Below, one piece after another: positions 7,694 to 58,777 of a DNA stretch of 64,000 nucleotides. The notes under the pieces were generated by a model. The model was not told the DNA's origin. It worked only from the letters and a program-made list of their open reading frames with translations, and made no database searches. The translations under genes and the position numbers were made by a program. How positions within the stretch are numbered: position 1 is the first letter of the stretch; the number at the start of each line of letters is the position of its first letter. Location: assembly GCA_040751795.1 (NCBI GenBank), contig JBFMHR010000004.1, positions 160,001 through 224,000 on the forward strand, read 5' to 3'. The DNA is from Thermoplasmatota archaeon (lineage in GTDB: Archaea; Thermoplasmatota; Thermoplasmata; UBA10834).

Positions 7694-8761
7694 ATGGCAG
7701 GGGAGGCGGTCGGGAAGGCGCTGCGCGAGGTGTCGGCCTCGGGCAGCCACTACAACATCGGTTCATCGATCGGGAAGCAGTGCAGGGACCAGGCCCTCAG
7801 GACCCAGAAGAGGTTCAAGGCCGCCCTCGACCGCACGCCCGGGATGACAGCCGAGAAGGCCAAGGCGGCCGGGAGGCTGAGCCTCCCCATCAGCAGGGAG
7901 TTCTGCCCCGAGTACGTCGAGGAGATGGAGGGGTACGCGGACGGCGCCGGGGTCGACTTCGACCTCCTCTACGCGGCGTTCAGCGACCTCCCCCTGGGCG
8001 GGGGGAAGGGGTGCACCGACATAGCGGTGAACGCGCAGTGGACCAAGGACGACGTCGTGTTCGCGGCCCACAACGAGGACCTGGAGCCCTACAACTACTC
8101 GGAGCTGTGCATCGTGAGGGTGTCGCCCAAGGACGGCCCCGGGCACATCGGCGTGAGCTACGGCGGCATCTACCCGACGGTCGGCATGAACTCGGCGGGC
8201 ATCAGCCTGACGGGGAACGCCCTGGTCCCGAACGACACCCGGACCGGGATCCCCAAGGTGTTCCCGGTCAGGAAGGTCCTGATGGCGAAGGGGCTCAACG
8301 ACGCCCTGACGTGGTCCATGCCCCCGGGGAGGGGGCACAGCTTCAACAACATCGTGTGCGACGCGAACGGGGAGATATACAGCATGGAGGGCTCGGCGAC
8401 CGAGTTCGACGCCCTCTACGGGCACGAGGGGTACCTCGTGCACACGAACCACTACCTCTCGCCGAGGATGTGGCGGTTCGAGGCGGACCTCCACACCCGG
8501 ATGTCGTCGATCATTAGGTACAACAGGGCCTCGAAACTGTTCAAGAGGCACCTCGGCCAGGTCGACGTCACGGCCTTCAAGGAGGTCTTCTCGGACCACG
8601 TGGGCTTCCCGGAGTCGATATGCAGGCACCCCGACCCGAGGCTGGGGGAGGAGGAGCAGGCCGCGACCATATTCTCGGCGGTCTTCGACCTCACCAGGAA
8701 GGCGATGTGGGCCTGCGCGGGGAACCCGTGCGAGGGGGAGTACAGGAAGTACGAGCTCTGA
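7694..8761 (+). CDS. Peptidase C45 family (Ntn-hydrolase, acyl-CoA:6-APA acyltransferase-like)
   Basis: Autocleavage site G|CTDIA, AHNED, VGMNSAGI, VHTNHY, SIIRYNRA, ESICRH. Confidence 0.9.
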   Translation: MAGEAVGKALREVSASGSHYNIGSSIGKQCRDQALRTQKRFKAALDRTPGMTAEKAKAAGRLSLPISREFCPEYVEEMEGYADGAGVDFDLLYAAFSDLPLGGGKGCTDIAVNAQWTKDDVVFAAHNEDLEPYNYSELCIVRVSPKDGPGHIGVSYGGIYPTVGMNSAGISLTGNALVPNDTRTGIPKVFPVRKVLMAKGLNDALTWSMPPGRGHSFNNIVCDANGEIYSMEGSATEFDALYGHEGYLVHTNHYLSPRMWRFEADLHTRMSSIIRYNRASKLFKRHLGQVDVTAFKEVFSDHVGFPESICRHPDPRLGEEEQAATIFSAVFDLTRKAMWACAGNPCEGEYRKYEL

Positions 8762-56699: not shown

Positions 56700-57440
56700 T
56701 TACCCGAGCGCGTCGAGGGCGTCGGGGACGCCCTCCATGGTCCCGACCCTGGCGTCCGCCTCGGTGGAGGGCTCCGACGCGTGGGCCATGACCTGGACCG
56801 CGTGCATCCCGACCCTCTTCGCCCCGGCCACGTCCTTCTCCGGGTCGTCGCCGACGTGCGCGGCCGCCTTGGGGAGCGTCCTGAGGCCCTCCAGCGTCAC
56901 CCTGAAGGCCGCCTCGGCCGGCTTCCTCACCATGATCTCGTTCGAGAACGTCGTGACGTCGAAGTGCTCCAGGATGCCCATGCGCCCCATCAGGACCCTG
57001 AGCGCGGAGCCGGGGGTCTTGCCGGTGTTGGATATGAGCCCGAGCCTGTAGCCCTTCTCGGCGACCGCCCTGAGGGCCTCCCTGGCGCCGGGGAGGAGCT
57101 CCGGCGGGTGGTCGAGCAGGCTGTCGGAGTAGGCCCTCTCCACCCGGGAGATCTCCTCGTCGGCCATCTTCCCCGGGAGCCTGCACTCGATGCAGCTCAG
57201 CATGAACAGCACATGGTCCCTGACGGGCATGTCCCTGGCCTTGCCCCAGGTGAGCTCCAGGAAGGTCCCGGTCTTCCTGTAGGCCTCCTCGACCTCCCAG
57301 AGGTCGTGGGGGCGGCCTATCCCCTCAAGGATGTCCGCGATCCTGTGGACCCTGAGCGACGCGACCCTCTCCGCCCCCCCCGGGACCTCCCTGACGAGGG
57401 TGTCCCAGAGGTCGAAGGTCACCGCGATTATCTTCCTCAT
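56700..57440 (-). CDS. HAD-superfamily hydrolase
   Basis: FDLWDTL, ISN, RKP...F, HVGDD...DV.GA...GM. Confidence 0.92.
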   Translation of the reverse strand: MRKIIAVTFDLWDTLVREVPGGAERVASLRVHRIADILEGIGRPHDLWEVEEAYRKTGTFLELTWGKARDMPVRDHVLFMLSCIECRLPGKMADEEISRVERAYSDSLLDHPPELLPGAREALRAVAEKGYRLGLISNTGKTPGSALRVLMGRMGILEHFDVTTFSNEIMVRKPAEAAFRVTLEGLRTLPKAAAHVGDDPEKDVAGAKRVGMHAVQVMAHASEPSTEADARVGTMEGVPDALDALG

Positions 57441-57527
57441 CCTCTGCGCGGCCCCGTAGGCGCAGGGGCGTAATGAACCCTGGGCCTAGCGGCCGTTCAT
57501 CGCCCTCCCCGACGGGGTGGGCAATGC

Positions 57528-57535
57528 TTATATAC
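57528..57535 (+). promoter_or_regulatory. TATA box of the 5S rRNA gene
   Basis: TTATATAC about 30 nt upstream of helix I. Confidence 0.7.
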
Positions 57536-57563
57536 GACATCGTAATTAGACGGGCTCAGAGAA

Positions 57564-57786
57564 TGGTTTGACGGCCATAGTGGCGGGGCCACACCTGGTC
57601 TCATTCCGAACCCAGAAGTTAAGCCCGCCTACGTTCTCTGTGGTACTGAGGTGCGCGAGCCCTCGGGAAGCCCAAGGCCCTTGAGGCCTCTCGGGCATAA
57701 CGGCTAGGTGCGCTAGCCAGGTACCTTCGGGTACAGGGTGAACCGCACCGCTTGAACCCGTTATGCTCGTGGAACGCCGTCAGCCA
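57564..57786 (+). rRNA. rrf: 5S rRNA with a ~95-nt expansion segment
   Basis: Canonical archaeal 5S elements: GACGGCCATAG, ACACCTGGTCTCATTCCGAACCCAGAAGTTAAGC, GTACTGAGG-TGCGCGAGC-CCTCGGGAA. Helix I TGGTTTGACGGC/GCCGTCAGCCA closes 223 nt apart. Confidence 0.93.
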
Positions 57787-57811
57787 CTCTCTTCTCCACC
57801 TCCACTCCCTT
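57787..57811 (+). terminator. Pyrimidine-rich tract downstream of 5S rRNA
   Basis: CTCTCTTCTCCACCTCCACTCCCTT immediately after helix I. Confidence 0.45.
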
Positions 57812-57880
57812 GCGGTCCGCGCGACCCGTTTGGTAGGTTTTATAAGAGCACAGGGTGCTAGGCGGGCCGGAGCTGGTCGC

Positions 57881-58777
57881 ATGGCGCTGACCGAGGGCGA
57901 GAAGATCATCCTTTTGGCCGTCCTCGCGGTGCTCATGGTCTTCGTCCTCTACTTCGAGTTCAGGATCATGCGGGGCAAGGCCAAGGGCGCGCGCAGGCTG
58001 GCTGTCCGCAAGGACGAGGCGTACAACGCGATACTCACGTGCAGGTCGGTCATGAACGTGCTCGAGAGGCAGGGCTCGGACGTGTCGGAGGCCCGCTCCC
58101 TCGTGAACAAGGCGAAGTCCCACATGGAGCGGGGAGAGCACGAGACCGCCATCGACCTCTGCGAGAGGGCGAGGGACGAGCTCACCAAGGCGCGGAAGTC
58201 CCCGGCGGGGGAGGCCGCGCCCCGCGCATCGAAGGAGGACAGGTACGGCCTCGAGGCCCTGGCGGAGGAGATCGTCACGTCCGACGGGCCGGGGCCGGCG
58301 AAGGACACCTACTCCGGGTCGAAGCTCGAGGTCCAGGGCGGCCCGAGCTACCTCGTCGCCAAGTTCGAGCTGAACACGGCGAGGGAGGAGATCTCCAAGG
58401 CCAGCAGGTCTGGGAAGGACACGGGCGAGGCGTCCGAGCTGCTGAGGAGGGCGCAGGCCGAGTTCGACGCGGGCAACTACACGAAGTCCCTCTCCATGTC
58501 AGTCAAGGCGAAGAAGGCGGCTTCCCCGGAGGGCGCGGGGGAGGCCATACCCCTCAGGTCCAGGCAGCCGCACGAGCGCCCGTCCGATGCGGTGGACGGC
58601 GAGGCGGAGGACGTGGTGGACGTCTGCTCCTCGTGCGGGTCCGACATAGACGCGGAGGACGCGTTCTGCGGGTCGTGCGGGGCCAAGCGCAGGAGGGAGC
58701 GCGCGTGCCCGTCGTGCGGCCGCGCCGCCTCCGAGAGCGACAAGTTCTGCAGGAAGTGCGGCGCGAAGGTCCCCTGA
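57881..58777 (+). CDS. Membrane-anchored helical protein with a C-terminal double zinc ribbon
   Basis: N-terminal TM, two similar helical segments (G.D..EA..L...A.....G), CxxCG..FCxxCG twice. Confidence 0.85.
   Translation: MALTEGEKIILLAVLAVLMVFVLYFEFRIMRGKAKGARRLAVRKDEAYNAILTCRSVMNVLERQGSDVSEARSLVNKAKSHMERGEHETAIDLCERARDELTKARKSPAGEAAPRASKEDRYGLEALAEEIVTSDGPGPAKDTYSGSKLEVQGGPSYLVAKFELNTAREEISKASRSGKDTGEASELLRRAQAEFDAGNYTKSLSMSVKAKKAASPEGAGEAIPLRSRQPHERPSDAVDGEAEDVVDVCSSCGSDIDAEDAFCGSCGAKRRRERACPSCGRAASESDKFCRKCGAKVP

Follow-up and report, generated by a model that had tools for sequence, protein, structure and literature searches.

A conserved, structured insert in helix V of the 5S rRNA of Thermoplasmatota archaea

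What is the additional RNA in a 5S rRNA gene that keeps an intact core at almost twice the usual length, and does it stay in the molecule? The question is raised by a locus in a 64,000-nucleotide (nt) stretch of contig JBFMHR010000004.1 (assembly GCA_040751795.1) from a Thermoplasmatota archaeon, the whole of which is called the window here. Direct sequence reading places an intact-core 5S rRNA gene at 57564-57786 on the plus strand, 223 nt in length: the core is continuous to GGGAAGCCCA, whose last base is 57674, and TGGAACGCCGTCAGCCA occupies 57770-57786, with 95 nt (57675-57769) in between. A preliminary description, made from this sequence alone, took these 95 nt for a structured insert in the 3' strand of helix V. 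Our analysis indicates that the insert is very probably a retained expansion segment of a functional, expressed 5S rRNA, and that it is not the peculiarity of a single genome for which it had been taken, being conserved in many families and in at least two classes of Thermoplasmatota. The parts of the gene, each with the evidence that delimits it, are the following.

57528-57534 (+): TATA-like promoter box TTATATA, ~30 nt upstream of the 5S gene
57564-57786 (+): complete expanded 5S rRNA gene (fold, helix I/V pairing counts, RNA contig ends)
57564-57674 (+): 5' core, with the helix I 5' strand, loop A, helices II-III, loop C, the helix V 5' strand, loop E, helix IV and loop D (RF00001 alignment)
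57675-57769 (+): expansion segment, 95 nt, in the helix V 3' strand between loop E and the three-way junction (match of covariance model R1, built from the insert alone, at 57675-57770, 104 bits)
57675-57689 (+): short arm, hairpin 1, of 5 bp with a 5-nt loop (folds; all 5 pairs change on both sides)
57677-57686 (+): part of hairpin 1 used by Rfam/Infernal as the 3' end, a false helix I strand (RF00001 alignment)
57692-57769 (+): long arm (folds)
57692-57703 with 57758-57769 (+): 12-bp basal stem of the long arm (all 12 pairs change on both sides in relatives)
57704-57706 (+): asymmetric internal loop, 5' side CUA, followed by G57707 (column conservation, 96 aligned inserts)
57707-57712 with 57744-57749 (+): inner 6-bp stem (97.4% of alignment cells paired; 5 of 6 pairs change on both sides)
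57716-57739 (+): distal hairpin with a UUCG tetraloop at 57726-57729 (folds)
57740-57743 (+): second internal loop, 3' side GAAC (A57741 98% conserved)
57750-57757 (+): asymmetric internal loop, 3' side GCUUGAAC, opposite CUA (column conservation, 96 aligned inserts)
57770-57786 (+): 3' core, the 3' strands of helix V (proximal part) and helix I (helix I/V pairing counts)
57787-57815 (+): pyrimidine-rich tract, the likely terminator region (sequence reading)

Two strands can be proposed as the 3' side of helix I. The RF00001 match (79.5 bits, gathering score 38) covers 57567-57686 and model positions 1-120, and its alignment closes helix I with 57677-57685, inside the insert. In 40 related expanded genes, however, this proximal helix I is paired in 73.4% of alignment cells, a level that 498 of 500 shuffles also attained, and at two positions 28 and 37 of the 39 rows, respectively, have no pair, whereas helix I formed with the distal strand (57776-57786) is paired in 98.9% of cells and has three pairs changed on both sides, reached by none of 500 shuffles. 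At the base of helix V, the distal strand pairs in 87.7% of cells. The distal strand, 57770-57786, is the genuine helix I/V partner. Sequence, fold and this distal pairing agree with the coordinates first given for the gene and its insert, and because the RF00001 match ends inside the insert at 57686, annotation truncates the gene, as had been anticipated. In the minimum free energy (MFE) fold of 57564-57790 (-103.8 kcal/mol, z -3.09; 1 of 200 shuffles equally good), the 5' end pairs with 57770-57786 and the insert forms a module of its own. The core showed no sign of decay in the preliminary description, and both its RF00001 score and its alignment columns, mostly invariant or nearly so among the 40 relatives, bear this out. 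The TATA box and pyrimidine tract described earlier are likewise present and recur: across 23 related loci, a similar A/T box lies at an equal distance from the 5S gene in most, and a T/C-rich tract always lies 3' of the distal gene end.

The insert folds well by itself (MFE -50.1 kcal/mol, z -4.18; 0 of 200 shuffles as good) and, together with both halves of helix V, gives a four-way junction in which a 2-nt linker joins hairpin 1 to the long arm. Covariation on related loci, a check suggested at the outset, was strong. Using a structure-blind MAFFT alignment of 105 unique inserts, onto whose columns the window's own MFE structure was mapped, pairing reached 78.5% of cells, the covariation score 0.508 and the number of double-change cells 614, against 38-49%, 0.12-0.18 and 195-314 when the pairing partners were slid, a control that this choice of structure biases somewhat in its favour; 0 of 500 shuffles reached the observed pairing and covariation values. 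A model-fitted alignment of 96 inserts agrees with the MAFFT-based pairing and covariation, and RNAalifold on the MAFFT alignment returned a partial consensus only. In the same 96 inserts, several unpaired bases are nearly invariant: A57706 and G57750 (100%), A57741 (98%), U57752 and A57755 (96%), A57756 (95%) and U57705 (94%); the unpaired C57690 is also almost invariant across classes. Compared by eye with consensus motifs, the conserved loops gave no clean fit to the kink-turn, sarcin-ricin/loop-E or UAA/GAN motifs, and therefore no motif is named. Duplication of the loop E-helix IV arm within the 5S rRNA was weighed as a possible source of the distal arm, and we do not claim it. Distances between inserts correlate with those between cores (Spearman 0.52; Mantel 0 of 999). 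Because of the covariation, the near-invariant loop bases and this correlation, the insert has the marks of an RNA domain passed on vertically and selected for its structure.

RNA libraries bear on whether the insert stays in the molecule. In four libraries from four studies, contigs connect the 5' core, the whole insert and the 3' core without interruption: X15 spans 57614-57781 with 0 differences, X19 57618-57779 with 2, X17 57648-57779 with 4, and X16, from a relative with 13 differences, 57648-57786, with an Illumina adapter directly after 57786. Depth was zero in the flanks (57450-57561 and 57802-57900) of all four runs, and these silent flanks serve as a control against DNA carry-over. 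The segment is thus kept in a stable RNA; it is inherited with the core, with its helices under structural selection and a few of its unpaired bases under sequence selection.

Introns can occur in archaeal rRNA and tRNA genes, and an insert that folds as a self-contained module might be transcribed and then spliced out to leave a mature 5S rRNA of ~125 nt; contigs of RNA libraries show presence, so a spliced form could coexist with the contigs described above. Both borders are nevertheless crossed by contigs in all four runs, and no joint skipping the insert occurs among the contigs of these runs. Our own scan of 57540-57810 found no canonical bulge-helix-bulge motif (two 3-nt bulges with a 4-bp helix between them, at the exon-intron borders) whose bulges fall near 57675 and 57769: the region has 12 minimal matches, which lie away from the insert ends, and 737 relaxed ones, of which the six close to the ends represent the noise level. 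When the insert alone was compared with Rfam, the three hits were chance matches (CRISPR-DR23, htlv_FSE and Teg23; E 1.7-4.2) and pointed to no intron family nor any other family, and its interior, conserved across classes, covaries and has invariant loop bases, which would be unusual for an excised spacer. Splicing is therefore very improbable. Bacterial 23S rRNA is known to be fragmented by intervening sequences that are excised without religation, and the near-perfect 12-bp stem of the long arm could be a target for a double-strand RNase, which would yield a fragmented 5S rRNA held together by base pairing. Against this stand the RNA contigs from four studies, uninterrupted over both junctions, and the insert of Halococcus morrhuae at the same site, which stays in the ribosome (PMC7530397), and we regard such excision as marginally less credible even than splicing.

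The assembly is a draft of 53 contigs, and the locus might be an assembly artefact or a decaying pseudogene. The same architecture, however, occurs in >130 independent loci, including single-contig genomes and records titled as a chromosome, and between 70 and 91% of the words sampled from the locus are present in 14 sequencing runs (marked 'DNA?' or '?') of 11 studies; the almost invariant core, the status of the gene as the sole 5S match in the genome and its presence in RNA libraries also argue against an artefact or a pseudogene. Both possibilities can practically be dismissed. Given the RNA contigs, the lack of any insert-skipping joint among them, the lack of a bulge-helix-bulge motif at the borders and of a matching Rfam family, a retained expansion segment is favoured over an intron or an excised sequence.

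A normal second 5S copy could in principle supply the ribosomes, as the preliminary description noted, but none was found: RF00001 has one match in the source genome (92.8% complete, 53 contigs). It matches in 56 of 61 genomes of the same class, where 58 of 60 5S places were read (all except G048:C14:4-125 and G056:C7:3809-3930), and the insert is present in 41 of the 57 archaeal loci, in genes of 222-239 nt; the other 16 carry a 5S of normal length, 124-127 nt, without it. In three relatives assembled as a single contig (G017, G018 and G020) there is one 5S match per genome, in each case expanded. The remaining one of the 58 places, L007, is a second 5S match in a family f1 genome, on a 557-bp contig (G028:C83:1-557); it looks bacterial and is likely contamination, not a canonical second copy.

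The wider distribution was followed with R1, a covariance model that covers the insert and no core sequence (97 positions, 31 pairs, 105 unique inserts). In an even sample of 151 genomes from the class it matches 59, and the insert is split nearly all-or-none by family. It is present in f1 (15/15), f2 (2/2), f8 (9/10), f15 (3/4) and f16 (15/17), with further positive families f17, f21, f23, f25, f27 and f29, whereas R1 has no match in f6 (0/16), f9 (0/8), f10 (0/7), f11 (0/15, a tally to which G127, flagged as unpublished, may contribute), f19 (0/12) and twelve smaller families. One of these twelve, f7 (G044), scored 0 of 1, yet a divergent insert is visible in its locus, and at E <= 0.01 R1 also misses the divergent inserts L054 and L175. 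The insert thus occurs in 12 of the 29 families of the class sample, plus other classes: in a phylum-wide sample R1 matches 14 of 151 genomes, including f41 (9/9), f61 and f62, all outside the class. One f62 genome (G286) has two insert-bearing 5S copies 2.5 kb apart (C128:5916-6011 and 8452-8547), the sole exception, among the genomes searched, to one insert-bearing 5S per genome.

A pattern derived from the alignment recognises 39 of the 41 expanded local loci and none of the 17 normal ones, and it was also scanned against one genome per prokaryotic species. It returned at least 120 loci, with at least 96 of the Thermoplasmatota type, at least 19 of the haloarchaeal type and five false positives, which were discarded (L088, L090, L105, L163 and L178). 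Among the at least 96 are records titled 'Thermoplasmata archaeon isolate UBA10834', 'Euryarchaeota archaeon RBG_16_67_27' and 'RBG_19FT_COMBO_56_21', and metagenome-assembled genomes (MAGs) labelled Methanomassiliicoccales, which fits the Thermoplasmatota-like host that had been proposed. The insert of the source genome clusters with those of the UBA10834 and RBG_19FT_COMBO_56_21 records, which a preprint places in the non-methanogenic Thermoplasmata order UBA10834 (bioRxiv 10.1101/2020.03.09.984617). Near-identical DNA occurs in sequencing runs labelled freshwater sediment, wetland, soil and sediment, and for this reason the source lineage appears non-halophilic, as suggested previously; that description does not extend to all carriers of the insert, which also include the halophilic Ca. 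Halarchaeoplasma, Saliniplasma, Haladaptatiplasma and Natronoplasma.

The Thermoplasmatota inserts are all homologous to one another (R1 E-values 1e-22 to 3e-4). Their history was examined on a tree of aEF-2 from 60 of the 153 genomes with a match (29 with the insert and 31 without, one to five per family, chosen before the tree was seen; rows G135 and G044 are partial), a single-gene tree from a quick search with a midpoint root. The insert is strongly clustered on it: the observed distribution needs 7 changes of insert state, where shuffled ones need 20 on average, and at least three changes are imposed by branches with good support. The insert-free families f6 and f26 adjoin the insert-bearing f8, inside an otherwise mostly insert-bearing clade. 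Because all of the Thermoplasmatota inserts are homologous and track the core, an old gain followed by several precise losses is the simplest reading; replacement through recombination with foreign 5S genes is the alternative to those losses. The same search brought up open frames for aEF-2 of 868-1067 amino acids (aa), against ~735, in f8 and other families (G045, G057, G077, G095, G103, G111, G118, G125; G071, G098, G159). In most of them the match begins at model position 20-32, which suggests an N-terminal extension, a fusion or an intein.

The closest known counterpart is the 108-nt insert of the Halococcus type, located at positions 104.1-105 of the core (Luehrsen 1981, cited through PMC7530397 and PMC7812874). 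Cryo-electron microscopy of H. morrhuae showed that the core is intact, that the junction is four-way and that the flexible insert points outward (Tirumalai et al. 2020, PMC7530397). The main text of a 2021 survey by Stepanov and Fox is the source for the following: archaeal expanded 5S rRNAs are listed in Halobacteriales alone, in four genera and at this single site, and are described as an asymmetric V made of a short hairpin and a long arm (PMC7812874). The likeness to the Thermoplasmatota insert, judged against loci of Halalkalicoccus, Halomarina, Halodesulfurarchaeum and others (including L107, L113 and L172), is extensive: both lie in the 3' strand between loop E and the three-way junction, both are of similar size (94-112 nt in Thermoplasmatota, ~104-111 nt in the haloarchaeal loci), both form, on a four-way junction, a V in which a short hairpin stands beside a long unbranched arm interrupted by internal loops, and in both cases the genome has no other type of 5S rRNA. 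The asymmetric loop of the Halalkalicoccus type, CA-GG opposite GUUACAAC, even matches the Thermoplasmatota invariants A and G on one side and G, U, A and A on the other. Unlike the Halococcus type, the insert described here is found in another phylum, in mostly non-halophilic uncultured lineages, and is spread far more widely and deeply than the four haloarchaeal genera in the main text of the survey; its distal hairpin carries UUCG, whereas the haloarchaeal inserts have an invariant GUCCCGGUGGA block, and their long arm contains one more internal loop, at its base.

The preliminary description considered the two inserts independent. No significant similarity was detected between them, but the same site, architecture and some loop bases are shared, and independence is not established. 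Common ancestry, whether the link was ancient inheritance or a 5S segment passed on horizontally, would account for an insertion point that agrees in detail (the loop-E sequence GGGAA(A/G), 4 nt, then the short hairpin, with the long arm ending 0-1 nt before the GG..CGC strand), for the common V of short hairpin and long arm, for the matching Halalkalicoccus-type loop bases and for the presence of the insert in the halophilic Thermoplasmata Ca. Halarchaeoplasma, Saliniplasma and Natronoplasma. With default filters, R1 gave 0 matches in 206 kb of haloarchaeal and control loci; with filters off, in 66.6 kb, the best two of 20 hits were haloarchaeal inserts at full length, at 12.5 and 12.0 bits (E 0.69 and 0.93). 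Conversely, 11 of 24 weak hits of a haloarchaeal model (R2) in 64.5 kb fell on Thermoplasmatota inserts, in register, the best of them at 14.9 bits (E 0.11), and the top R2 hit overall was false. An nhmmer profile of the Thermoplasmatota insert matched 0 of 16 haloarchaeal inserts and gave weak hits to 17 of 960 dinucleotide shuffles. The rankings by R1 and the R2 hits in register favour common ancestry, but no R1, R2 or nhmmer score is significant, the hits may reflect a generic shape of hairpin plus long hairpin in related sequences that are not independent, and the invariant distal block of the haloarchaea has no counterpart in the Thermoplasmatota inserts. The site is also said to be the sole sterically free one in archaeal 5S rRNA, allowing unhindered expansion (PMC7812874), which speaks for convergence. 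Taken together, a common origin of the two insert types is conceivable but rather doubtful.

The pattern scan of one genome per prokaryotic species also located Halococcus-type expanded 5S genes in records of Salinirubellus litoreus, Halobacteriales archaeon YIM A00013 and Halobacteriaceae archaeon GCM10025711, and in those of Actinarchaeum halophilum, where they lie on both chromosome 1 and chromosome 2 (loci L100, L101, L170, L095, L133 and L076). The Salinirubellus, Actinarchaeum, YIM A00013 and GCM10025711 records are beyond the four genera in the main text of the survey. A further haloarchaeal-type expanded 5S, L154, lies on a contig whose record is titled 'Bacteroidetes bacterium QS_9_68_14'; this is probably a mis-binned haloarchaeal contig in a bacterial MAG.

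Other known systems resemble the Thermoplasmatota insert in part. The bacterial 5S expansions recorded in the 2021 survey, from Thermoanaerobacterales, Clostridiales, Halanaerobiales and Alteromonadales, are also base-paired modules on an intact 5S core that databases and annotation have overlooked (PMC7812874); their sites, however, include loop C, helix III and helix IV, and they often stand beside normal copies and are patchy by strain, whereas the Thermoplasmatota insert occupies one site in a single-copy gene and is a family-level trait. Archaeal bulge-helix-bulge introns similarly place an extra self-folding stretch inside a stable RNA gene, but the 5S insert has no border motif and no spliced contigs, and its interior covaries. 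The large-subunit expansion segments of eukaryotes and Asgard archaea are likewise lineage-specific surface additions that leave the common core intact, and differ in belonging to 23S/28S rRNA rather than to 5S rRNA (Penev et al. 2020, PMC7594248).

The gene lies in a 440-bp gap between an open reading frame (ORF) on the minus strand that ends at 57440 and one on the plus strand that starts at 57883. RF00001 aside, no Rfam family scored above threshold within the 64-kb window, and from this and the gap we conclude that the 5S gene stands alone, in line with the description of Thermoplasmata rRNA genes in a review (PMC8339473). The upstream neighbour, 56700-57440 (-), is an ORF of 246 aa whose translation, judged by eye, has HAD-hydrolase-like motifs, and the downstream neighbour, 57883-58777 (+), encodes a membrane-anchored protein with C-terminal zinc-ribbon-like CxxC pairs. 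In the f1 relatives, a conserved TTTATAA box (57838-57846 in the window) lies ~50-90 nt downstream of the 5S gene, before the next gene; the 5S gene and its downstream neighbour therefore appear syntenic within the family.

To explain these observations, we propose that 57564-57786 encodes the functional 5S rRNA of the cell, which would be transcribed from its own promoter as a stand-alone RNA of ~223 nt. Its canonical core would fold normally, and the 95-nt segment would leave the 3' strand of helix V, turning the junction point into a four-way junction from which a short hairpin and a long arm extend, the latter consisting of the basal stem, the asymmetric loop, the 6-bp stem, the second loop and the UUCG hairpin. 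The near-invariant loop bases (UA-G opposite G-N-U-N-N-A-A, plus one A) may form a defined tertiary motif. By analogy with H. morrhuae, the insert would sit on the central protuberance, where this motif could dock a partner, either a protein or another RNA element; such docking is a serious possibility, if somewhat short of probable. That the insert is instead a tolerated, structurally constrained but otherwise functionless appendage seems unlikely. The segment would have arisen long ago within Thermoplasmatota and later been lost or exchanged in several lineages. A more far-reaching version, in which there was a single ancient Thermoplasmatota module, the Halococcus insert is its distant, horizontally exchanged relative and the loop bases dock a lineage-specific partner at the central protuberance, is a speculative combination that we hold to be improbable.

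Several points weigh against the explanation proposed here. The insert evolves 2.3-3.5 times faster than the core, which is compatible with weak constraint beyond the helices and the few invariant bases. A single clade of insert-bearing lineages is rejected on the aEF-2 tree (p-AU 0.0006), and several losses or transfers are needed. With the draft in 53 contigs and 92.8% complete, a second 5S copy could be unassembled. The RNA evidence consists of assembled contigs, which show presence, and not the share of molecules that keep the insert nor the exact mature ends; and we infer both the placement of the expanded 5S rRNA in the ribosome and any partner.

It had been suggested that the insert may be undescribed, and our literature search, a full-text one with subscription journals and supplements mostly outside it, found no published description of a Thermoplasmatota 5S insert. 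The UBA10834 preprint does not mention 5S rRNA in its available text, and the available text of two reviews (PMC8339473 and PMC8997704) does not link Thermoplasmata with 5S expansion; the published work on 5S expansion that was found comes from the Fox laboratory (PMC7530397 and PMC7812874). Large prokaryotic 5S insertions are regarded as rare and, in Archaea, as confined to a few haloarchaeal genera (PMC7812874). The survey's stated input was annotated RefSeq 5S genes >129 nt plus targeted searches within the affected orders, and MAG lineages with a truncated annotation would therefore escape it. A large 5S expansion at this site is already known; the sequence family, the phylum and the breadth are new.

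These results reveal a systematic annotation error, as Infernal/Rfam gives a 120-nt gene with a wrong 3' end in all of these genomes. They also reopen the origin of the Halococcus insert and raise the question of a partner at the central protuberance. With >100 distinct sequences, the inserts offer a natural data set on the birth, keeping, remodelling and loss of an rRNA expansion, and they make 5S expansion a stable family-level trait in a large share of a mostly uncultured, non-halophilic phylum. Should the reading of a single exchanged module with docking loop bases prove true, these archaea would have a ribosome with an extra 5S domain that is functional, and not merely tolerated.

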